Of a DNA stretch of 64,000 nucleotides, positions 4,492 to 36,702 are shown piece after piece. The notes beneath the pieces were generated by a model. That model did no database searches. It saw only the letters and a list, made by a program, of their open reading frames with translations, and was not told the origin of the DNA. The stretch is from the sequence record PZ452596.1, one strand, 5' to 3'. Numbering within the stretch: position 1 is the first letter of the stretch; the number at the start of each line of letters is the position of its first letter. A program made the translations under genes and the position numbers. This stretch comes from a phage.

Positions 4492-4988
4492 AAAGTTTTA
4501 ATAACCTCTATAATATCGTCTTGAGAAAGACCGTTAATTAAAATATGATGTTCAGCTGGAGATTTAGAAATTTTAAAGCATGCCTCAACATCTTCTGCCA
4601 TATCCGATGCACTACGATTTGGATTACTAATTCCAAGGCGGTGTTTTCCCGTCAAAGGATTAACGATGATATAGCATTTGCAGCTATTGATATGAACATT
4701 AGGCTGAGTCTGATTAATGAACACTTCACAATCATACTTAGCGAGTTGATTTTCTAAAAAGACTTTCATTTCCTCAACCGCATCAGGAAGCATATCACGG
4801 GCTTGCTCAAGACGACGATTTCGATATTCTTTAATGGTCGTTTTCCGCTTGACTTGCTTTGCTAAATCTTTCTTAAGATCGGTGATATATCCAACTCGAC
4901 GATTTCCTTTGAATACAGAAATCCCATCTGTAGTATCACCGTATGCTTCAACGACCATTTCAGTAGTAATAAGCTGTAAATCCATCAT
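4482..4988 (-). CDS. alc: Alc, inhibitor of host transcription
   Basis: 168-aa ORF between pseT and rnlA, matches T4 Alc size and position. Confidence 0.85.
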   Translation of the reverse strand: MMDLQLITTEMVVEAYGDTTDGISVFKGNRRVGYITDLKKDLAKQVKRKTTIKEYRNRRLEQARDMLPDAVEEMKVFLENQLAKYDCEVFINQTQPNVHINSCKCYIIVNPLTGKHRLGISNPNRSASDMAEDVEACFKISKSPAEHHILINGLSQDDIIEVIKTLCM

Positions 4989-4994
4989 AAAGTC

Positions 4995-5049
4995 CTCATG
5001 TTATGTCAGTAAGTCTACTATAACACAACACGAGGGACTTGTAAACAGC

Positions 5050-5050
<1 letters not shown>
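4995..5050 (-). promoter_or_regulatory. early promoter candidate upstream of alc
   Basis: minus strand GTTTAC -18- TATAGT. Confidence 0.4.
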
Positions 5051-6637
<1,587 letters not shown>

Positions 6638-29749: not shown

Positions 29750-30210
29750 TAGTAAAGGTCCTCAGAGTAAAGTTCTTTTTCACTACCACCACGTTCAATA
29801 CGTACTTGTCCAGCGTAAGTTGCAATAATCATTGCTTCTTCACGTGTCCAATAATTACTATATTGGTCAATAAACCCCTGGTCATCATCACAAACTTGCT
29901 GAGTCACTAATTGAGGTTTAACTATATCTAAAACTGCTGCCATATCTTTAGAATAATGACGAGCACCTGGAATAATAAGAGTTCGTCCATCTTTTAATTT
30001 AAAACGGTTGGCTGCGCAAACAATCCGTCGTTGATACTTTTGGTTTTCATCCCAGTATGCAGACTGCCAACAGATTTCAGGAACTTCTTTTAGAATATCT
30101 TCTTCTGTGCATTTATAACCATGCGCTTTAAATTTTTCAGCAAGACTTTCTGGAGTTTCACGAGATAAAGGAACATTCAGCATTTTTAAACGATTGATAA
30201 ATGGGTTCAT
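29749..30210 (-). CDS. hypothetical protein (arn-motA cluster)
   Basis: 153-aa ORF. Confidence 0.5.
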
Positions 30211-30536
30211 TTAAACCATCCTTTAATACGTTGCCACAAAGTTTTCTGTTGAGCTTTGTTAACACCAATTGAGCGAATAACTGGTTGAGATTCCTGGAAT
30301 TCTTTATAATCAGCAAGGTAAATTTCGTAAGCTGCATTTGTAAATGAACTTATCGCTGCCATAAAATTATTGCGAATACCTACTGGAGCATCTTTACTTT
30401 CACGAATAATCATGTATTTACCAGTCTTAATCTTTACGATAGTTCCAAGATAAGCTCCATGATACCAGATGTCCCAACCCTCTTGAGTAGGTTCTGCACA
30501 ACGACGAAGTTCATTAACAATTTCTAACTTGTTCAT
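30207..30536 (-). CDS. hypothetical protein (motA.1 position)
   Basis: 109-aa ORF immediately upstream of motA. Confidence 0.5.
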
Positions 30537-30546
30537 TATTTATTCC

Positions 30547-31182
30547 TCACAGTTCAGATGCTACAGCGATTACTGCTTCAATGTTTTCTGCCGAGCGTTT
30601 AATGTCAAGATACACATTACCGTTTTTAGCGATTTTACATGACATTCCGATGTCAGTAAATTTCTGAATATGATGTTCCATCATTTTGTATCCAAAAATT
30701 CGCATATTTCCATTGTTGTTAATTTCAAAATTGCGAATTCCGTGAGTGCGTTTTTCTAAAATAGCGAGATAATTACTACGATAAGTTTCAACCTTTTTAA
30801 GAACAAATCCATTTTCATCTAAAAGTTTTAACATGAAGTCTTTATCTTCTTCCATATCAGAAGTAATCTCGCGAGCTTTACGAGTTGCTCGTTTTTTCAG
30901 CAGTTCCGGAGCATTTTCCTGTGCATATAAAGTTGCTGCATTTGAAATAATATCCTGAGCTTCACCAGTAATGATTAATCCATCACCAGATTTCTCCACC
31001 AGGCCTTTTTTAATCAATACCCCAATATTACTATTAACTACTGCGTTACCTAAATCTGGATGCACCTCACGAACTTCTGCAGCTGTAATGAAATCTTTCT
31101 TAGCAATAGTAATTAAAATCGCAGCAGTTTTTTCATTCAGAACATCGTTAGAAGCTTTGATGATGTAAGTTACTTTAGACAT
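30547..31182 (-). CDS. motA: middle-transcription activator MotA
   Basis: 211 aa, same length as T4 MotA. Confidence 0.9.
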   Translation of the reverse strand: MSKVTYIIKASNDVLNEKTAAILITIAKKDFITAAEVREVHPDLGNAVVNSNIGVLIKKGLVEKSGDGLIITGEAQDIISNAATLYAQENAPELLKKRATRKAREITSDMEEDKDFMLKLLDENGFVLKKVETYRSNYLAILEKRTHGIRNFEINNNGNMRIFGYKMMEHHIQKFTDIGMSCKIAKNGNVYLDIKRSAENIEAVIAVASEL

Positions 31183-31204
31183 TTTCTAATCTCCGTAATT
31201 CTGT

Positions 31205-31265
31205 ATCAGTAGTTGATAGTTGTATAGTACCACAGTATGCTTTGGTTGTAAACCGTTTTGTGAAA
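31205..31265 (-). promoter_or_regulatory. T4-type early promoter upstream of motA (repeat family copy)
   Basis: minus strand GTTTACA... GGTACTATACAACTATCAACTAC. Confidence 0.5.
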
Positions 31266-31284
31266 AAAATTTTTAAATAAAAAA

Positions 31285-31304
31285 GGGAGAGCCGAGGCTC
31301 TCCC
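31285..31304 (-). terminator. rho-independent terminator between motA promoter region and gene 52 operon end
   Basis: GGGAGAGCC..GGCTCTCCC hairpin followed on minus strand by TTTTTTATTT. Confidence 0.7.
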
Positions 31305-31309
31305 TAAAA

Positions 31310-31459
31310 TTACTGCATGACTGTGATAACTGTCATGATAACACGTTGAATTCCGAACGCAAGAAGACCTCCTGCTACAGCTGGAACAACGCCTAACCCC
31401 GCCAGTAAAATGCTACCAGATACTAATGCAGCGCTTGTAATACCAATGAATGGACTCAT
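31310..31459 (-). CDS. small hydrophobic membrane protein
   Basis: 49 aa (MSPFIGITSAALVSGSILLAGLGVVPAVAGG...); ATGA overlap with gene 52 stop; below ORF-track cutoff. Confidence 0.4.
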   Translation of the reverse strand: MSPFIGITSAALVSGSILLAGLGVVPAVAGGLLAFGIQRVIMTVITVMQ

Positions 31460-32784
31460 TTGATTTCCTCTAAATCTTTGGTGTATTCTGTAACTACATC
31501 AGTAGTTTTCCAATATTCGTTTTCTTCTTTTTTAGCTTTAGCTTCTTCAGCAAGTTTCTTCGCTTCATCGGAAGTCATATGAAAAATATTCATTCCAACT
31601 AGTTTATCAACATAAGAAGAATACATATCAATTTTCGAAAGTTCTTCGGTCAGTTCTTTACGAGTTTTACCCTGTACAACAATTTCACCTGAAATTACTT
31701 TCTTAATGAAATGCGCCTTGGCAAAGGCTAAACGAAAAGCTGATTCAGTTTCTTTGATTTTGTTATCAATTCGTTTTTGGACATAAGTTTTACGAACTTC
31801 AACAAAGTCTTTAATTAAATCAACTACGTTATCGTAAACTTGCAGTTTTCCTTTCTCATTAATAACCGTAATATTCTGAGAACGACGCTCAATCAACCCA
31901 AAGTCTTTCATAATTTTTGCATGGCGTTCTTCTTCATTATCGCTCAAAGAATATTCTTTACGGAATTTAACTTTGAACCCAAAACCATGCTCACCACAAG
32001 CATCATCCCATGTAATGAAGCCTTTATCTTCAAGTGGGTCTAAGATTTTACTCACATAAGTTTCACGATCATACTTATACGGAATCTCAGTGATATGCAT
32101 TTGAGTTCGTGAAGTAAACTTATATGTTCCACGAATTTCATATTGGCCATCAATCTCAACGACTTCACCACGAAATTCTGGGAATTCTACCTTCGGTTTA
32201 GTTACTTTCTTTCCTTGAAGAGCTTGTAATACAGCTTTCTTGACAGAAGAAACACTATGAGGAAGAATGTAAGTTGCATAACCAGTTGCAATACCGGAAA
32301 CGCCATTAAGAAGAACAGTAGGAATAATAGGCAAATAGAAAGCAGGCGGAATATGTTCTTTATCTTGATGTACCGGAGCATATTCAGTATCTTTATATAC
32401 GTTATAGAAATTTTTACTTACACGAGCAAAAATATAACGACTTGCCGCTGCCTTTTGGACAGTACGAGAACCAAAGTTTCCTTGACCGTCTAACAAAGGA
32501 AAGTTATTATTCCAAGTATTAGCCATCAAAGCCCCCGCATCTTGTGCAGAGTTTTCACCATGATGATATCCAAGGTCAGCTACACCACCTGCAATAGAAG
32601 CAAGTTTGTGAAACTTATCTTTATTTCCTCGCGCCAAATCAAGAGCTCGAGCAATAACAAATCGTTGAACTGGCTTAAATCCATCAATCATATTTGGAAT
32701 AGCACGATTTTCAACCGTGTACATAGCATAAGCCAATGCTTCATTATCAATGATACTTTTTAAATCGCGATTATTCAGTTGCAT
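31456..32784 (-). CDS. 52: DNA topoisomerase II medium subunit gp52
   Basis: 442 aa, GyrA-like region; matches T4 gp52. Confidence 0.95.
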   Translation of the reverse strand: MQLNNRDLKSIIDNEALAYAMYTVENRAIPNMIDGFKPVQRFVIARALDLARGNKDKFHKLASIAGGVADLGYHHGENSAQDAGALMANTWNNNFPLLDGQGNFGSRTVQKAAASRYIFARVSKNFYNVYKDTEYAPVHQDKEHIPPAFYLPIIPTVLLNGVSGIATGYATYILPHSVSSVKKAVLQALQGKKVTKPKVEFPEFRGEVVEIDGQYEIRGTYKFTSRTQMHITEIPYKYDRETYVSKILDPLEDKGFITWDDACGEHGFGFKVKFRKEYSLSDNEEERHAKIMKDFGLIERRSQNITVINEKGKLQVYDNVVDLIKDFVEVRKTYVQKRIDNKIKETESAFRLAFAKAHFIKKVISGEIVVQGKTRKELTEELSKIDMYSSYVDKLVGMNIFHMTSDEAKKLAEEAKAKKEENEYWKTTDVVTEYTKDLEEIK

Positions 32785-32788
32785 AAAT

Positions 32789-32929
32789 TTACCATACTAG
32801 TGAATGTAGTGCCATAATAACATCAGAAATGAAAAGCACGACTTGAATTAATCCGAACATTACTCCATAATATAGTGCTACTAATAAAGTAGCAAGGGCT
32901 AATGAATAGCCCAAGATTTTCTTAATCAT
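32789..32929 (-). CDS. small hydrophobic membrane protein (ac / 52.1-like position)
   Basis: 46-aa ORF MIKKILGYSLALATLLVALYYGV... found by hand. Confidence 0.35.
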   Translation of the reverse strand: MIKKILGYSLALATLLVALYYGVMFGLIQVVLFISDVIMALHSLVW

Positions 32930-33080
32930 TAGTAGATAACAACACAAATGTTAAATATGCACACATACCCTGAGCTAAAGCTTGCGAAAACACACTGCTG
33001 GCATCAATACAGATAGTTAAAACACATGCTACTATCCAACAAATAAATGAAATAACTCCTAATAATTTTGCAATATTCAT
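32922..33080 (-). CDS. small hydrophobic membrane protein (ac-like position)
   Basis: 52-aa ORF MNIAKLLGVISFICWIVACVLTIC... found by hand. Confidence 0.35.
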   Translation of the reverse strand: MNIAKLLGVISFICWIVACVLTICIDASSVFSQALAQGMCAYLTFVLLSTND

Positions 33081-33087
33081 ATTTTCC

Positions 33088-33168
33088 TCACTGGCGTCCG
33101 AAGACGCCTTTAGTTTTAAGATTATTACGATAGAACTGCATCACGTGTTCGTTGTGGAAATTACTCAT
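33088..33168 (-). CDS. stp: Stp peptide (activator of host PrrC anticodon nuclease)
   Basis: 26-codon ORF translating to [26 protein letters not shown]; start overlaps ndd stop by 1 nt; not in ORF track. Confidence 0.8.
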
Positions 33169-33626
33169 TAATATGCCTGCAAAACGAATTTAAAATTATC
33201 AGCCAACATACGGTTCATTTCTTCAAGTGTTTGATACTCAGAATGATGATTACGAGTAAACGCTAAAGCTAACTGTCCTTTTCCAAATCCCGTCGTCAGA
33301 GGTTTCATCTTAGAAGCAGGCAGATAAAATACTGTGTATGGAACATTGTTATTTGCAATAGTACGTGCAAGCTGAGACCGACGTTGACGAATATGACTTA
33401 GAACTGCACTGAATCCTTGCTTAGAACGCTGATTACCTACATAAAATCGTGCTGACACACATGGATTACTAAATGGACGACCATCTAATTTACTTACTAA
33501 AAAGTAAAATCCAGGTTTAGATAAAATATCTTTATGCGGAGTTCCCAAAAACCACTCACCGCCCTTGATTGTACCAATAACAGTAGCGCCTGCATTATTC
33601 AGATCAGTAACAGTCATGTATTTCAT
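33168..33626 (-). CDS. ndd: nucleoid disruption protein Ndd
   Basis: 152 aa from [18 protein letters not shown]...; track ORF is N-terminally over-extended. Confidence 0.9.
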
Positions 33627-33684
33627 ATTAATTTCCTCTAAATTATTTTCTACTCCAAGGCCGCATGAATACGCGGCCATTAAA

Positions 33685-33900
33685 TTAATCGTCGCAGTCG
33701 ACGCTCAATTCCCAAAACTCTTCTACAGTATAAGTTTCAGTATCATTTTCAATACAGAAACGTTCATTACTATTATTTGCTAAAGTAGCATTAACTGTCG
33801 GTTTCTCGCCAGTGCTCTTAAGAGGTGAAATACGAATTAACTGATCACCATTATCTAAACAAAAAATTTCACCAACTTTTACATCTTTAAAGATTTTCAT
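33685..33900 (-). CDS. hypothetical protein (ndd-denB cluster)
   Basis: 71-aa ORF. Confidence 0.45.
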
Positions 33901-34015
33901 AATTCACCTCAAGGAGTATAAAATCCAAATGCAGTTGTTGACCATCCCATCCAATACGGGAAATTTGCGCCAATGTAAAACATGAGAATATAAAACCAAC
34001 CACTCAGCAAATTCA

Positions 34016-34234
34016 TCATTTTACATCATTCCAAATTGTTTCAACTACAGATTTTAAGCCATTTTGATGAATGTCCATTCCGACAACTGCCATCAAATAG
34101 ATTCCAACTACAACTGAACCCAAGGCGAAAATCAGCATGAAAATGAATAAAGCCGGAAAAATATTATCGAAAAACCATTCAATAAATGTAAAAGCACTAC
34201 GTTTACGCTTCATATTTTCCTCACATAAATCCAA
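34016..34234 (-). CDS. small membrane protein (ndd-denB cluster)
   Basis: 72-aa ORF with hydrophobic helix. Confidence 0.4.
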   Translation of the reverse strand: MDLCEENMKRKRSAFTFIEWFFDNIFPALFIFMLIFALGSVVVGIYLMAVVGMDIHQNGLKSVVETIWNDVK

Positions 34235-34334
34235 AATAAGCGTTTAATACATCAATCATTAAAACGATTGGGAATATACTCAAAACTATTAGTATTATAA
34301 CTACATTCCATATAGCTTTAACAATCTTTTTCAT
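34221..34334 (-). CDS. small membrane protein (ndd-denB cluster)
   Basis: 37 aa from MKKIVKAIWNVVIILIVLSIFPIV...; early promoter just upstream. Confidence 0.35.
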   Translation of the reverse strand: MKKIVKAIWNVVIILIVLSIFPIVLMIDVLNAYFGFM

Positions 34335-34344
34335 TTTCTGTTCC

Positions 34345-34405
34345 TCCGTAGTTGATAGGGTAATAATACCACAGAGGAACAGTCTTGTAAACAACTTTTT
34401 AAAAA
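34345..34405 (-). promoter_or_regulatory. T4-type early promoter (repeat family copy)
   Basis: minus strand GTTTACAAGACTGTTCC... ; variant -10. Confidence 0.45.
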
Positions 34406-34608
34406 TATTCGTAATAAATGTGAATACCAATCACCACTGCCGAAACTTGTGCAACCCACCACGCACAAGCAATAAGTACAGAATTAAAAATTTTCATAAT
34501 AACCTCATCACAAAAGTAAATGTTAAACAAATTAATGGAATACTAATTAACCAAACAAAACACCACCATAATGAACTCATAGTTCAATCTCAACGATTTT
34601 CATTTTAC

Positions 34609-34827
34609 TCAATAATCCGCTAAAAGATCGACGATTGCATCACGAAGACACTTATTCGCAATACGTTTAAGAGCAATTTCAGTTTCTGGAGCATTTTGAA
34701 TAATCATTGAATTCAATTCAGCCTCAGCAAACTGAAGTTCTTTAACTAATTCAGCTTTATATTTTCCTTGCCCTTTCTTAGCTTTTGCTCGTTTTAATTC
34801 AGCTGTAGTAAACATTTTATTCTCCAA
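34609..34827 (-). CDS. hypothetical protein (ndd-denB cluster)
   Basis: 72-aa ORF preceded by early-promoter repeat. Confidence 0.45.
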   Translation of the reverse strand: MENKMFTTAELKRAKAKKGQGKYKAELVKELQFAEAELNSMIIQNAPETEIALKRIANKCLRDAIVDLLADY

Positions 34828-34831
34828 ATCC

Positions 34832-34895
34832 GTATCAGTTGATAGTTGTATATTACCACAGTCCTTGTGGTATGTAAACAGTTTTGTGAAAAAAT
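34832..34895 (-). promoter_or_regulatory. T4-type early promoter (repeat family copy)
   Basis: minus strand CTGTTTACATACCACAAGG...GGTAATATACAACTATCAAC. Confidence 0.45.
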
Positions 34896-34899
34896 TTTT

Positions 34900-35457
34900 T
34901 TAAATGGAAAGATACCATCCATTGTAGTTGCTTTTTCTTACAACCTTACGAAGGTCTTCTCTATCACCGATGAATTTCGGAGTGTACTGGATGACACCTG
35001 GATGAATTTCTTTAGTGTTGAATATAATTATACAGTCAGCGACTTGGTGATTCAGAATGGGCCCTAGATTTATTCCAGAACCGTATGGATACTCTCCGCT
35101 GCATCCGGTTGTTACCGAAATCCATCGTGAGTCAGTTTGATGTGTTTTGACTTCTACACGAAGCCCACAGTATTTTGGATGCGCCAATACATCCCATGCA
35201 TATGTATATGGGTCATTAACATCCTCTTGGCCTTTGTTAACATACCCGCTTAGCCAATCTGCTACAAAAAATTCTGCGTACACAGCGATACGGCATCTTT
35301 CGATAACTTCTGCCTTATCCTGATTTGGGTTTTGTTTTAAAGAGTATCTTGCAGTATCAGCAATTTTGACCTTCATTTCATTGGTTAAATCGCTGTTCGA
35401 TAGAGTAAATGTCGGAATCTGAAATAGTCTCTGTAGCCCCGGATTCGTTTTCTGCAT
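34900..35457 (-). CDS. denB: endonuclease IV (dC-specific)
   Basis: 185 aa, same length and position as T4 DenB. Confidence 0.88.
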   Translation of the reverse strand: MQKTNPGLQRLFQIPTFTLSNSDLTNEMKVKIADTARYSLKQNPNQDKAEVIERCRIAVYAEFFVADWLSGYVNKGQEDVNDPYTYAWDVLAHPKYCGLRVEVKTHQTDSRWISVTTGCSGEYPYGSGINLGPILNHQVADCIIIFNTKEIHPGVIQYTPKFIGDREDLRKVVRKSNYNGWYLSI

Positions 35458-35525
35458 TTAAACTTTCCTTTATGTCGGAATCACTGATATTCATATAATA
35501 AATCATAATTTCTCTTAAAACAAAA

Positions 35526-35537
35526 GGGCCGAAGCCC
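35526..35537 (-). other. UUCG-tetraloop hairpin immediately 3' of stop codon
   Basis: minus strand GGGC-UUCG-GCCC directly after TAA of the 64-aa ORF; identical copy at 35752. Confidence 0.5.
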
Positions 35538-35540
35538 TTA

Positions 35541-35735
35541 TTATTTGAATTGTGCAATTCTTTTCTCTAGACATTCAGCATAAGATTTCATTGAAATGAA
35601 CTGTGAAAGCAGCAGTTCTTGCTCAACTGCACTAACCGTTAGAAACTTTGCGCTTTCTAAAAATTTACTAAGCGCATTAATTTTGAGCATTAATTGATCG
35701 TATTCTTCTTTTACTCGTGCTTGATAACCTAACAT
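35541..35735 (-). CDS. hypothetical small protein between rIIB and denB
   Basis: 64-aa ORF flanked by two identical UUCG-loop hairpins. Confidence 0.45.
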   Translation of the reverse strand: MLGYQARVKEEYDQLMLKINALSKFLESAKFLTVSAVEQELLLSQFISMKSYAECLEKRIAQFK

Positions 35736-35751
35736 AATTTTCCTTAGTTAA

Positions 35752-35763
35752 GGGCCGAAGCCC
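35752..35763 (-). other. UUCG-tetraloop hairpin immediately 3' of rIIB stop codon
   Basis: identical 19-nt element TAAGGGCUUCGGCCCUU as at 35526. Confidence 0.5.
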
Positions 35764-36702
35764 TTATTTAAATTGTTCAGTAACGTCTTCAACTACTTCG
35801 TATTGGCAGGTACGCATTTTAGCGTCGTTGTAATCAATCGGAATTGATACTACATCGCGAGGATGTACTTTAACTTTTACAACTCGGCTGGTTGAACTGC
35901 CAAAGTGACGAATATAAGATTTAGAACACACATGCAGACCGCGAGAACAAGTTTGTGTATCATCGTCATTCACACGAGTACGTGGCATTTTAACTACTTT
36001 ACCCGGACTGTTATCAAATGTGTTTGAGTGACAGTCAAAGTAATTGCTGCGAACTACTTTCCAAGCATAGAAGTAACCATCTTCTGTAATTTCAATATCG
36101 TTTGCTACCAAGAAATCAAAGAGTCGAGATACCGCTTTTTGGCTTGGGTTTTCCAGCAGATTTTCCAAGAACGGAAAATAAAATTCAAAGTTTTCGCCTT
36201 TTTCCATCGAGTCAAGAATACGATCAACTAAACCGGACCGCAATTCGATATTTTGATAGAACAAGCTTCCACCTTCAATTCGAACATCGCCGGAAATATA
36301 TTTTTCAACAGCGCGACGAACATTAATTTTTTGCACAGCTTCTTCCAGCTTATCCGCTACAAGCAGATTAAGAATTTCCTGGAAGTTTGAATGAGTATTA
36401 GGAGTTGCGTTATAAGTTACGCCATCAACAGTAATTGAAATGAATTTTTTAGATGCATTCCAAATAATGTCAGATTTAGCAACTGGAGCAATAACTGCAT
36501 CGCTATTAACTTTAACTGTAATATCACCGCTAATAGTAACTTTAGGGTGTTTAGCTTCTTCAGCATTTTTCAAAACACGACGGATTGTGTCAACCGATAC
36601 ACCTTGCCAATCAGCCAATTCCTGTTGGGTGTAATTACCACTTGAATACAGTTTAACAATTTCAGCTTGTTCATTTTTGGTCAGGCATTTAATATTGTAC
36701 AT
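35764..36702 (-). CDS. rIIB: rIIB protein
   Basis: 312 aa, matches T4 rIIB. Confidence 0.95.
   Translation of the reverse strand: MYNIKCLTKNEQAEIVKLYSSGNYTQQELADWQGVSVDTIRRVLKNAEEAKHPKVTISGDITVKVNSDAVIAPVAKSDIIWNASKKFISITVDGVTYNATPNTHSNFQEILNLLVADKLEEAVQKINVRRAVEKYISGDVRIEGGSLFYQNIELRSGLVDRILDSMEKGENFEFYFPFLENLLENPSQKAVSRLFDFLVANDIEITEDGYFYAWKVVRSNYFDCHSNTFDNSPGKVVKMPRTRVNDDDTQTCSRGLHVCSKSYIRHFGSSTSRVVKVKVHPRDVVSIPIDYNDAKMRTCQYEVVEDVTEQFK

Follow-up and report, generated by a model that had tools for sequence, protein, structure and literature searches.

The window, a 64,000-nt stretch of phage DNA, was 100% identical in DNA sequence to phage RB27. The small ORFs flagged between 31310 and 34600 all correspond to annotated T4-type genes on the minus strand, in exact agreement with the RB27 annotation and, gene by gene, with those of T2 and T4 (Table 1). 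An earlier note on this DNA had counted at least seven ORFs of 28-72 aa around gene 52 and between ndd and denB; that count is correct, because ten small genes lie within the range. The 72-aa readings are maximal TTG-start frames (34016-34234 and 34609-34827), and the Shine-Dalgarno-bearing starts instead give 65 aa and 68 aa, respectively. The comparison that the note had proposed with T4 52.1, ac and ndd.1-ndd.6 returned orthologues at 94-100% amino-acid identity, and all functional information on the RB27 genes is transferred from these T4 orthologues. All ten small genes matched PHROG families, which are separate families of unknown function, and nine of them, as well as orf68, matched Pfam families. 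The tiny hydrophobic ORFs are thus real and conserved early genes, known from existing annotations of T4-type phages, and the cluster is an ordinary one for such phages because its ORFs are these known genes.

Table 1. Features of the region, with family matches, dN/dS among Tequatrovirus genomes and presence among 20 sampled loci.
Feature	Position	Strand	Description	Family match	dN/dS	Loci
motA early-promoter copy	31211-31253		repeat copy
Intrinsic terminator	31284..31305	minus	ends unit; 9-bp stem then T run; MFE -18.6 kcal/mol, z=-4.95
motA.1	31310-31459	minus	49 aa, Gly/Ala-rich, hydrophobic	PHROG 3487 (E=2e-31)	0.07
gene 52	31456..32784	minus	topoisomerase II medium subunit; essential; small ORFs on both flanks		0.01
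52.1	32789-32929	minus	46 aa, hydrophobic, DUF7396	PF24129 (82 bits, cut-off 27)		20/20
ac	32922-33080	minus	52 aa	PHROG 2501 (E=4e-25)	0.10	15/20
stp	33088-33168	minus	26 aa, soluble; activator of host PrrC anticodon nuclease	PF08133 (75 bits, cut-off 25)
ndd	33168..33626	minus	nucleoid disruption protein; 152 aa from Shine-Dalgarno-bearing start; cluster's anchor gene		0.09
Stem-loop	33658..33677	minus	GGCCGCGU/AUGCGGCC; between ndd.1 and ndd; MFE -15.8 kcal/mol, z=-3.2
ndd.1	33685-33900	minus	71 aa, acidic, soluble	PHROG 2183	0.09
ndd.2	33909-34019	minus	36 aa, uncharged, aromatic-rich, hydrophobic	PHROG 4135 (E=2e-24)	0.12	15/20
ndd.2a/ndd.3	34016-34213	minus	65 aa, DUF7248	PF23906 (69 bits, cut-off 27) and PHROG 2401, full-length	0.10	16/20 (DUF7248)
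ndd.4	34221-34334	minus	37 aa, Lys cluster at N-terminus, then one TM helix	PHROG 3098 (E=4e-21)		19/20
Early-promoter repeat copy	34350..34392	minus	exact repeat match; upstream of ndd.4
ndd.5	34399-34497	minus	32 aa, single hydrophobic helix	PHROG 5011 (E=9e-26)	0.08	12/20
ndd.6	34494-34580	minus	28 aa, single hydrophobic helix	PHROG 8851 (E=3e-17)	0.12	18/20
8-codon remnant ORF	34577..34603	minus	MKIVEIEL; relatives have 87-aa ORFs ending ...MKI(A/V)EIEL
orf68	34609..34815	minus	68 aa, Lys-rich, non-hydrophobic; just beyond the 31310-34600 range
Early-promoter repeat copy	34837..34879	minus	exact repeat match; upstream of orf68, ndd.6 and ndd.5

Among 13 Tequatrovirus genomes, dN/dS was 0.07-0.25 for nine of the ten small genes, and variable sites pooled over the eight hydrophobic ORFs were distributed 25/17/72 by codon position (p=8e-11). 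Save for identifiable laboratory-strain lesions, the frames were intact and of constant length in all 12-13 Tequatrovirus orthologues. Orthologues with conserved motifs were recognisable in other genera at 27-60% identity, and polar and aromatic motifs were kept across up to seven sampled phage lineages. Every start has either a Shine-Dalgarno sequence or a stop/start overlap; the overlapping pairs are ndd.6/ndd.5 (4 nt), ndd.2a/ndd.2 (ATGA), ndd/stp, ac/52.1 (8 nt) and 52/motA.1 (ATGA). Together, these substitution and conservation patterns indicate that the reading frames are under purifying selection and conserved across genera. Where the earlier note had looked to an absence of conservation in related phages as counter-evidence, we found strong conservation across Tequatrovirus and other genera.

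The proteins encoded are of two kinds. Eight of the ten small genes have a hydrophobic stretch, the Kyte-Doolittle mean over 17 residues peaking at 1.4-3.4; the same scan gave no such stretch for stp and ndd.1. Basic termini were also noted. The description of the ORFs as mostly hydrophobic therefore applies to these eight, but not to the soluble products of stp and ndd.1. Hydrophobicity alone is weak evidence: of the small ATG ORFs in this AT-rich window, 27% on the minus strand and 15% on the plus strand are equally hydrophobic, a 59-aa out-of-frame ORF inside gene 52 among them. We conclude that eight small proteins of the region are genuine and hydrophobic (MotA.1, gp52.1, Ac, Ndd.2, the 65-aa Ndd.2a, Ndd.4, Ndd.5 and Ndd.6) and that it encodes three more that are soluble (Stp, Ndd.1 and ORF68).

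Among the 20 loci, motA.1 (variable sites 3/1/11 by codon position) was found in Tequatrovirus only; in other genera its coupled slot holds unrelated small TM ORFs. Its product has Gly/Ala-rich helices that recall glycine zippers. The gene 52.1 occurs in every sampled genus and stops 4 nt short of the start of gene 52; its last 60 nt show zero nucleotide diversity and carry, just upstream of gene 52, a MotA-box-like TGCTTTT with TATTAT 12 nt further on. Ac is 96% identical to T4 Ac and, like that of PP01, represents a T4-type allele with an extra Thr. The hydrophobicity scan gave one stretch in Ac (residues 1-32), and an ESMfold model predicts two short helices (bioRxiv preprint). Residues Q37-G38 are invariant across genera, and the G38R change that confers acriflavine resistance (bioRxiv preprint) hits this invariant glycine. 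Stp is 100% identical to its T4 counterpart.

Upstream of stp, the RB27 record starts ndd at 33680, at the 5' edge of the stem-loop, whereas T4 and T2 use the ATG corresponding to 33626. Homologues of ndd.1 carry a precomputed PF26909 assignment. For ndd.2, a tblastn match in a Klebsiella phage (46% identity) kept the motif N.PYW.GWS, and BLASTP clustering grouped a Karamvirus ORF into the family. One annotation requires correction: "ndd.2a" in RB27 is a 65-aa gene (DUF7248) with the Shine-Dalgarno sequence GAGGAAAATATG, of which the RB27 record annotates only the 40-aa part from an internal ATG (34016-34138). The 65-aa form covers both 'ndd.3' and 'ndd.2a' of T4, where a 1-nt deletion in the reference splits a gene that is intact in RB27 and, at 198 nt, in T4 OZ209057. 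We therefore rejected T4 'ndd.3' as a genuine gene: it is an out-of-frame product of this frameshift. From a basic N-terminus, the full protein runs through one long TM helix to a conserved helix, GLKSVVE.IWNG, at its C-terminus; an AlphaFold2 model of DUF7248 (pLDDT 80; helices 4-17 and 19-64) predicts essentially one long helix.

Within the genus, ndd.4 varies at only 4 sites and has no synonymous excess, which makes its dN/dS there uninformative; its coding status rests on cross-genus conservation, the motif LKAIWN...SIFPIV..ID being kept in most genera. Found in Tequatrovirus only, ndd.5 has variable sites distributed 1/0/9 by codon position, and ndd.6 retains S2, S3, W6, W10, I13, P14, C17 and F20. 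The start of ndd.6 overlaps the stop of the 8-codon remnant (ATGA), in a place where most relatives have the 87-aa ORF. The adjacent orf68 is a variable cassette: RB27, T2 and REP4 carry it and T4 lacks it. The strong RegB cleavage consensus (PMC3014915) is matched exactly by the orf68 Shine-Dalgarno sequence, GGAGAATAAAA (34815-34825).

A 43-nt repeat, GTTTACA-N12-TGTGGTA-N-TAT-N4-CTATCAACT, was present in five copies in the window at up to 3 mismatches, versus none in 100 shuffles. The early-promoter copies that the earlier note had placed at 34345 and 34832 are real, their positions lying no more than 5 nt from the low ends of two exact repeats. The copy upstream of orf68 combines the -35 element TTTACA, the extended -10 element TGTGGTAATAT and the conserved leader CTATCAACT; it matched a sigma-70 scan with the TG extension and can be aligned with the motA promoter copy. 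The copy upstream of ndd.4 was the top minus-strand sigma-70 match (10/12, with TG). No intrinsic terminator was found in the unit ahead of the hairpin that follows motA.1 (31305-31284). This hairpin and the motA promoter copy together make up a PeSL-type cassette (stem-loop plus early promoter). The motA copy, one of three in the region, is the only one with an upstream stem-loop. The T4 orthologue transcripts are all classed 'early', and T4 Ndd.1 is seen early by mass spectrometry. In time-resolved shotgun proteomics of T4, the hydrophobic products are listed as not detected, with only Ndd and Ndd.1 detected; such non-detection is expected for very small hydrophobic proteins, yet it remains an absence.

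In genome-wide screens of T4, these genes are 'Not Fit' in CRISPRi-ART and 'Non-essential' in HIDEN-SEQ, and phenotypes are known only for ac (acriflavine sensitivity) and stp (PrrC activation). The earlier note's suggestion that such peptides have exclusion or resistance roles is thus documented for ac and stp, but not for the other eight genes, which show no fitness effect in the two screens; none of these eight is named in the HIDEN-SEQ main text, where genes conditionally essential under defence systems are reported. Nor is ac itself a resistance gene, as wild-type ac sensitises to acriflavine and resistance follows its loss. Plasmid-expressed Ac likewise sensitises cells (bioRxiv preprint). 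Infected or Ac-expressing cells accumulate acriflavine, and the preprint proposes that AcrAB-TolC may be blocked; the classical reading was raised permeability to acridines. On acriflavine-free plates, viral titres were equal on hosts with and without Ac expression (preprint). The sa-delta-9 deletion of the interval in T4 abolishes the phage-induced stimulation of phosphatidylglycerol synthesis, and the mutant is viable with a 50% burst. At least one gene of the interval therefore probably acts on host lipid metabolism; ndd, stp and denB are lost in sa-delta-9 as well, so that the lipid effect could have a source other than a membrane peptide.

Diversity is concentrated in two hot spots, ac and the denB-ndd.6 interval, and relatives carry alternative alleles and extra ORFs. 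With the published PeSL-mediated exchange of ndd.4/ndd.5 in phage PST, the region is a documented hot spot for gene-cassette swapping.

This is the well-known non-essential early region of a T4-type phage, from rIIB/denB to motA, and we consider it probable that its products are immediate-early inner-membrane peptides that bind host envelope proteins. Host RNA polymerase very probably starts at the two immediate-early promoter copies, at about 34879 and 34392, and many of the genes are translationally coupled via overlapping stop/start codons. In the first minutes of infection, the peptides may enter the inner membrane of the host, each as one helix or a helical hairpin, and there bind specific envelope proteins, in a manner analogous to bacterial small-protein regulators; generic membrane damage would not be their mode of action. 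Ac would be the worked example, and the G38R change on an invariant glycine counts for specific interaction over generic damage. The genes are accessory, dispensable on laboratory hosts but retained by selection in nature, and recombination at the repeated promoter cassettes probably swaps, loses or gains them.

Two other readings would deny the peptides such a role. That the tiny ORFs, or some of them, are hydrophobic frames arisen by chance in AT-rich spacer, annotated by habit and yielding no functional protein, is scarcely credible. Chance ORFs in the window are often as hydrophobic, the products escaped T4 proteomics, knock-down and transposon insertion have no phenotype, and T4 'ndd.3' is truly such an artefact; the substitution pattern has nevertheless largely refuted this reading already, with its third-position excess and low dN/dS in the annotated frames, and it fits poorly with constant-length frames, motif-bearing orthologues in other genera, a Shine-Dalgarno sequence or overlap at each start, and ac point mutations that alter the phenotype. 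It is also quite improbable that the ORFs act mainly in cis, as translational-coupling leaders or mRNA spacers (52.1 for gene 52, for example) or as passive cargo in mobile promoter cassettes. The many overlaps would suit that role, as would the invariant end of 52.1 with its MotA-box-like element, the ATGA coupling to ndd.6 that the remnant still keeps, and the PeSL mini-circle exchange published for ndd.4/ndd.5. However, purifying selection acts on amino acids along the whole length, beyond the junctions, motifs persist at 30-60% identity despite nucleotide divergence, and the Ac phenotype is protein-dependent, as plasmid expression sensitises cells.

Other readings accept the proteins and assign them different work. 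As superinfection-exclusion or anti-defence factors, they would block the entry of competitors' DNA or neutralise membrane-embedded host defences. Early, non-essential, fast-swapping accessory genes are the usual signature of an arms race, diversity peaks at ac and the denB-ndd.6 cassette, and rIIB, stp and arn, which lie nearby, are all concerned with host exclusion systems. We nevertheless regard this role as unlikely: the peptides have no similarity to T4 exclusion proteins and fall in separate PHROG families; the sole PADLOC match, to KwaA (E=0.008), spans a bare TM helix and is not credible; the HIDEN-SEQ main text, in treating defence systems, mentions no ndd.x, 52.1 or motA.1, and the study's conditional rows, among those listed, have q=1.0; and most of the peptides show strong conservation and low dN, not diversification. 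Toxin-like or holin-like disruption, in which the peptides depolarise or permeabilise the inner membrane soon after infection for host shut-down, is very improbable. Small hydrophobic helices made early, the classical permeability reading of ac and the zipper-like helices of MotA.1 are consistent with it, but T4 requires an energised membrane throughout its cycle. The peptides have no Pfam match to holin or type I toxin families, their conserved polar and aromatic motifs point to specific contacts, and the preprint titres were unaffected by Ac expression on acriflavine-free plates.

The binding of host envelope proteins by early accessory peptides, which we favour, can be set beside known systems. 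In T4 (NC_000866 163730-166996), gene order, strand and overlaps from motA.1 to ndd.6 are all as in RB27, and the early-promoter copies 5' of ndd.4 and motA and the motA.1 terminator are common to both; RB27 differs in having orf68 and the 8-codon remnant in the denB-ndd.6 interval, which is empty in T4, and an Ac that is one Thr longer. The region also resembles the PeSL cassettes and hyperplastic regions of T4-like phages (Arbiol 2010, PMC2839356; Comeau 2014, PMC4122927), in which small non-essential genes are bordered by strong early promoters in repeated copies, with indels and replacements at these promoter repeats; the ndd.4/ndd.5 exchange in PST is a published case from the same region. 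It departs from them in that a terminator stem-loop lies directly upstream only at the motA copy, those at 34392 and 34879 being bare promoters. T4 Imm and Sp are likewise early, small, envelope-located and non-essential; they belong to other families, and the RB27 ORFs are without a known exclusion phenotype. By mode of action only, we liken the peptides to AcrZ, MgrB and SgrT, bacterial small inner-membrane protein regulators. The RB27 peptides differ in being phage-encoded and expressed in the early phase only, with putative partners and no sequence relationship (no Pfam matches). They share with these regulators the small size (30-65 aa), the single-helix or hairpin form and a handful of conserved residues, polar or aromatic, and Ac alters the accumulation of an AcrAB-TolC substrate.

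Bases 30000-36000 of the window match phage RB27 (KM607000.1, record positions 158466-164466) at 100% identity, and RB3, T2 and hundreds of further Tequatrovirus genomes at 96-99.6%; 946 phage records matched this segment, 467 of them covering at least 80% of the query. Roughly 490 Tequatrovirus genomes span the region. The genes of the region lie on the minus strand throughout, and a mechanical ORF list agreed with the RB27, T2 and T4 annotations. These comparisons confirm the cluster of small ORFs at 31310-34600 that an earlier note on this DNA had described, and resolve it into ten small genes, which that note had correctly recognised as T-even genes. Its description of the products as hydrophobic holds for eight of the ten (motA.1, 52.1, ac, ndd.2, ndd.2a, ndd.4, ndd.5 and ndd.6) but not for Stp or Ndd.1; ORF68, encoded just beyond the range described, is non-hydrophobic too. 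The 72-aa ORFs that it listed exist, but as maximal TTG-start readings, and the Shine-Dalgarno starts give 65 and 68 aa.

Features of the small-gene cluster, comparison genes and copies of the 43-nt repeat in the window
Feature	Position	Strand	Length (aa)	dN/dS (Tequatrovirus)	Presence in 20 loci	Motif (cross-genus alignment)
motA.1	31310-31459	-	49	0.07	Tequatrovirus only	
52.1	32789-32929	-	46	0.25	20/20	YYG...VLF(I/L)SDVIM...W
ac	32922-33080	-	52	0.10	15/20	F.CW...VF.Q...QG
stp	33088-33168	-	26	0.07	16/20	
ndd.1	33685-33900	-	71	0.09	18/20	
ndd.2	33909-34019	-	36	0.12	15/20	N.PYW.GWS
ndd.2a/ndd.3	34016-34213	-	65	0.10	16/20	GLKSVVE.IWNG
ndd.4	34221-34334	-	37		19/20	LKAIWN...SIFPIV..ID
ndd.5	34399-34497	-	32	0.08	Tequatrovirus only	
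ndd.6	34494-34580	-	28	0.12	18/20	SS..W...W..IP..C..F
orf68	34609-34815	-	68			
ndd (comparison)				0.09		
denB (comparison)				0.04		
43-nt repeat (pattern scan)	13523	-				
43-nt repeat (pattern scan)	31211	-				
43-nt repeat (pattern scan)	34350	-				
43-nt repeat (pattern scan)	34837	-				
43-nt repeat (pattern scan)	62075	-				

We scored the eight hydrophobic ORFs by mean hydropathy in a 17-residue window. Seven of them contain a window with a mean of at least 2.2, and Ndd.2 is weaker, at 1.4. Hydrophobicity alone is insufficient to establish coding, because 27% of the small ATG ORFs on the minus strand of the window and 15% of those on the plus strand (35% GC) are equally hydrophobic; a 59-aa out-of-frame ORF inside gene 52 equals any real gene in this respect. 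The decisive evidence was evolutionary. We compared 20 loci, from 13 Tequatrovirus genomes and 7 outgroup genomes (Mosigvirus RB69, two Dhakavirus phages, two Gaprivervirus-type phages, one of them formally unclassified, Karamvirus Pet-CM3-4 and an unclassified Klebsiella phage); a related-locus search with Ndd supplied five close loci, and the divergent genomes were added individually. The dN/dS values tabulated are pooled Nei-Gojobori estimates. Variable sites in the eight hydrophobic ORFs fell 25/17/72 across the three codon positions (chi-square p=8e-11). An apparent signal of positive selection in ndd.4 (dN/dS 2.5) was rejected as noise in a generally low-diversity stretch: only four of its sites vary, so that ndd.4 is uninformative within the genus, and gene 52 varies equally little at its 5' end. 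Conservation, which the earlier note had named as a check, was borne out across relatives. From the substitution pattern and the cross-genus conservation, we conclude that the small ORFs are real genes.

Each small ORF tested matched a PHROG (E from 1e-17 to 1e-38; orf68 was outside that scan). Ac, which in RB27 is 96% identical to its T4 counterpart, aligned with PHROG 2501 at E=3.7e-25, its residues 1-51 covering the whole profile (positions 1-50 of 50). Pfam placed gp52.1 in DUF7396 (PF24129; 81.9 bits vs a cut-off of 27, positions 1-46 of 46) and Stp, which is identical to T4 Stp, in Nuclease_act (PF08133; 75.3 bits vs 25). In precomputed database labels, the newer Pfam family PF26909 is assigned to Ndd.1 homologues, and Ndd.4 apparently belongs to another newer family, PF26889, whose label sits on a natural Ndd.4::Ndd.2a fusion. 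Shigella phage Sf25 gp120 (P0041) is a natural fusion of an Ndd.4 N-terminus with an Ndd.2a C-terminus.

A PADLOC scan for defence families gave nothing credible; its sole match, KwaA on ndd.4 (E=0.008), covers only 28 residues of bare transmembrane helix and was for that reason taken as compositional. An Rfam scan of 31000-35600 gave nothing near any gathering score. For Ndd.1, a 71-aa, acidic and soluble protein, the annotation of phage EAWsc9 had raised the idea of a DUF2829/Tad2-like anti-Thoeris function, and we found no DUF2829 match at E<=10 in six homologues, the EAWsc9 protein included. No related solved structure was found for Ndd.1, and its AlphaFold2 model is all-beta at low confidence (pLDDT 60). 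The names "naphthalene 1,2-dioxygenase" and "outer membrane protein" carried by Ndd.1 homologues are propagated mislabels, unsupported by the family scans run; mislabelled or unsupported names occur on homologues P0001, P0002, P0006 and P0019 and at 4841-5086 of the related locus L014.

The comparison also corrects the reading of ndd.2a. In RB27, this gene runs from the ATG at 34213 (after GAGGAAAAT) to 34016, upstream of ndd.2, and encodes 65 aa, of which the RB27 record annotates only a 40-aa internal-ATG part. The 65-aa reading matched DUF7248 (PF23906) at 69 bits vs a cut-off of 27, over profile positions 4-56 of 58, and PHROG 2401 over positions 6-62 of 63; the 40-aa form would cover only the C-terminal part of DUF7248. 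The T4 reference (NC_000866, locus positions 6433-6629) lacks one G after ATGAA, and this loss splits the gene into "ndd.3" and "ndd.2a". The T4 "ndd.3" product is out of frame and is a singleton among the PHROGs; in the T4 annotation on which HIDEN-SEQ relied, ndd.3 is 82 nt long, one base more than in the reference. The intact 198-nt gene is found in the recent T4 assembly OZ209057 (locus positions 4537-4734) and in nearly all other relatives. On these alignments, we conclude that T4 "ndd.3" and "ndd.2a" are one 65-aa gene and that "ndd.3" is an out-of-frame artefact. When the 65-aa protein was modelled with AlphaFold2 (pLDDT 80), a short helix at the N-terminus was followed by a second, unbroken one spanning residues 19-64. 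Such a model is consistent with a basic N-terminus in the cytoplasm, one pass through the membrane and, at the C-terminus, an amphipathic helix that is conserved.

Other discrepancies of strain or annotation came to light in the same loci. T2 (LC348380) has a premature TAA at codon 33 of ndd.2a and another at codon 11 of ac, and laboratory T2 thus appears, from its genome sequence, to be a natural null for these two peptides; its stp also differs at the C-terminus. For ndd, the start given in the RB27 record is ATG 33680 (170 aa), at the 5' edge of a stable stem-loop at 33677-33658 (-15.8 kcal/mol). That start is probably too far upstream, since in T4 and T2 the gene begins at the ATG of 33626, where a Shine-Dalgarno sequence is present and the product is 152 aa. 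The arn.4 gene measures 330 nt in the recent T4 assembly (locus positions 732-1061), RB27 and most relatives and 207 nt in the T4 (locus positions 2628-2834) and T2 reference annotations, probably through a reference frameshift or a start-site discrepancy. In one IMG/VR contig (L004, 2369-2620), ndd.6 is frameshifted into an 83-aa ORF and ndd.5 is destroyed.

A 43-nt repeat, GTTTACA-N12-TGTGGTA-N-TAT-N4-CTATCAACT, occurs five times in the window at up to 3 mismatches, against 0 occurrences in 100 shuffles. Two exact copies have their low ends no more than 5 nt from 34345 and 34832, where the earlier note had placed early-promoter copies; the third copy in the region is the motA early promoter. 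A generic sigma-70 scan returned the same three sites, each with a TG-extended -10. The window copies share the T4 early-promoter features (-35 GTTTAC, extended -10 TGnTAT.AT and a common leader), and GenBank entries for T4 mark -35/-10 signals at the counterparts of the nrdC.9/nrdC.10 and motA copies. Early promoters are thus predicted at about 34879 and 34392. We found no intrinsic terminator between them and the hairpin that follows motA.1 (31305-31284, -18.6 kcal/mol, z=-4.95), and the motA promoter copy (31253-31211) comes directly after that hairpin. In PeSL cassettes (early promoter plus stem-loop), a stem-loop lies directly upstream of the early promoter; stem-loop 31305-31284 holds this place at the motA copy, and the copies at 34392 and 34879 stand without one. 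The stop codon of one gene overlaps the start codon of the next at ndd.6/ndd.5, ndd.2a/ndd.2, ndd/stp, ac/52.1 and 52/motA.1; ac sits between stp and 52.1 and overlaps the 52.1 start, as in T4.

Two RNA features accompany this arrangement. The Shine-Dalgarno sequence of orf68, GGAGAATAAAA (34815-34825, minus strand), is an exact instance of GGAGRAYARAA, the consensus for strong RegB cleavage, one of 3 such sites in the window vs 0.34 expected, and suggests that the orf68 message may be inactivated early by RegB. A hairpin, GGCGUC-UUCG-GACGCC (33093-33108, minus strand; -11.5 kcal/mol, z=-2.9), spans the last stp codons and adjoins the ac Shine-Dalgarno sequence, of which it lies just upstream; its product, GVFGR, is kept in Gaprivervirus-type phages, so that constraint acts either on the RNA or on the end of the peptide.

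Gene 52 is flanked by small peptide genes on both sides. The end of 52.1 and the start of gene 52 are 4 nt apart in all 20 genomes. The last 60 nt of 52.1 (within 32781-32850, minus strand) have zero nucleotide diversity among the 13 genomes, and its 3' end contains TGCTTTT with TATTAT 12 nt later; this resembles a middle promoter of the MotA-dependent kind, which would serve gene 52 from within the 52.1 coding sequence. A small transmembrane ORF follows gene 52 in all five lineages compared at this junction: Tequatrovirus (49 aa), Mosigvirus RB69 (26 aa), Dhakavirus and Gaprivervirus-type phages (32-34 aa) and the Klebsiella phage (59 aa). Where coordinates are comparable, its start shares bases with the stop of gene 52 (ATGA; 31456-31459, minus strand). 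The other loci compared here were L009, L010-L012, L014 and L016. These ORFs form five families, with no similarity detectable among them, and we have met no earlier description of unrelated small transmembrane ORFs occupying this slot. A functional tie between the flanking peptides and the topoisomerase subunit is possible from the gene arrangement. gp52 may associate with the membrane, an idea on which a literature search gave nothing usable.

What, then, might the peptides do? Transcripts of the T4 orthologues of the small genes are all classed early; T4 shotgun proteomics detected Ndd and Ndd.1 early, and lists MotA.1, gp52.1, Ac, Stp and Ndd.2 to Ndd.6 as undetected (PMC9697503 Table S2). 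We found no membrane fractionation data for the peptides. All the small genes were "Not Fit" in a dCas13d knock-down screen of T4 (PMC11879866 supplement) and "Non-essential" in a T4 transposon screen, with 86-100% of TA sites disrupted (bioRxiv 10.1101/2025.11.20.689424 supplement). Phenotypes are known for only two, Stp and Ac. Stp is an activator of the host PrrC anticodon nuclease (T4 annotation, Pfam Nuclease_act). For ac, wild-type T4 infection is acriflavine-sensitive, as is that of PP01, whose Ac has the same extra Thr as RB27; resistance follows from deletions and from point mutations, G38R among them, and plasmid-borne Ac sensitises E. coli to both acriflavine and ampicillin (bioRxiv 10.1101/2025.06.30.662393). 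The authors of that preprint propose that Ac sits in the inner membrane and blocks AcrAB-TolC (bioRxiv 10.1101/2025.06.30.662393). We found that G38 is the glycine that never varies in the QG motif shared across genera; this favours a specific contact over general damage to the membrane.

The earlier note's interpretation is thus partly supported: the resistance role it suggested for ac is reversed, wild-type ac conferring sensitivity instead, and an exclusion role for the peptides besides Ac and Stp is without support, none matching a known defence or exclusion family (PADLOC; Imm/Sp) and their PHROG families being of unknown function. We tentatively favour, as plausible and somewhat short of probable, a reading by analogy in which the set as a whole would consist of immediate-early peptides that insert in the inner membrane, bind host envelope proteins and act like bacterial small-protein regulators. 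The T4 deletion sa-delta-9, which removes 52.1 through denB, is viable with half the burst and abolishes the phage-induced stimulation of phosphatidylglycerol synthesis (PMC6071114), an activity that consequently maps to this interval. We consider it improbable that peptides co-made with the topoisomerase subunit anchor gp52, or else the replication complex, at the inner membrane, or that the DUF7248 protein or Ndd.4 is the phosphatidylglycerol-stimulation factor.

The finding in itself carries little weight; the genes, their order, the promoters and the regional plasticity are already known, since all are documented in the T4 literature, GenBank, Pfam and PHROGs. What can be used are the conservation-ranked peptides (52.1, ndd.4, ndd.6 and DUF7248), the 65-aa reading of ndd.2a and the motifs, as sites for mutation.

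Nucleotide diversity among the 13 Tequatrovirus genomes was 0.00-0.08 over most of the region, with peaks of about 0.23 at ac (32930-33080, minus strand) and about 0.25 from denB to ndd.6. At the first peak, a second ac allele type (MKFVYG...LLNKND, about 45% identical) is carried by Shfl2, EPIMRB01, REP4 and the Gaprivervirus-type phages, and in Shfl2, EPIMRB01 and REP4 it lies inside flanks that are 93-100% identical. The ac-site loci, in coding-strand coordinates, include L013 4071-4223, L018 3755-4098 and L019 3226-3378. A paralogue-like 52-53-aa ORF, also ending in ND, occurs in REP4 and in Gaprivervirus and Dhakavirus phages, and a further hydrophobic ORF of 57-61 aa follows ndd in Shfl2, Pet-CM3-4 and the Klebsiella phage. 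The second peak, between denB and ndd.6 (34577-34879, minus strand), is an indel hot spot: most relatives carry an 87-aa ORF, REP4 has both orf68 and the 87-aa ORF, and both are absent from T4. In RB27 and T2, orf68 is accompanied by an 8-codon remnant (MKIVEIEL, 34603-34577), which looks like the product of a deletion between two ATGAAA repeats and has kept its overlap with the start of ndd.6. The pattern here fits that of the hyperplastic regions of T4-like phages, which are reshuffled at repeated early-promoter/stem-loop cassettes, an exchange of ndd.4/ndd.5 in phage PST being a figure example of such reshuffling (PMC2839356, PMC4122927).
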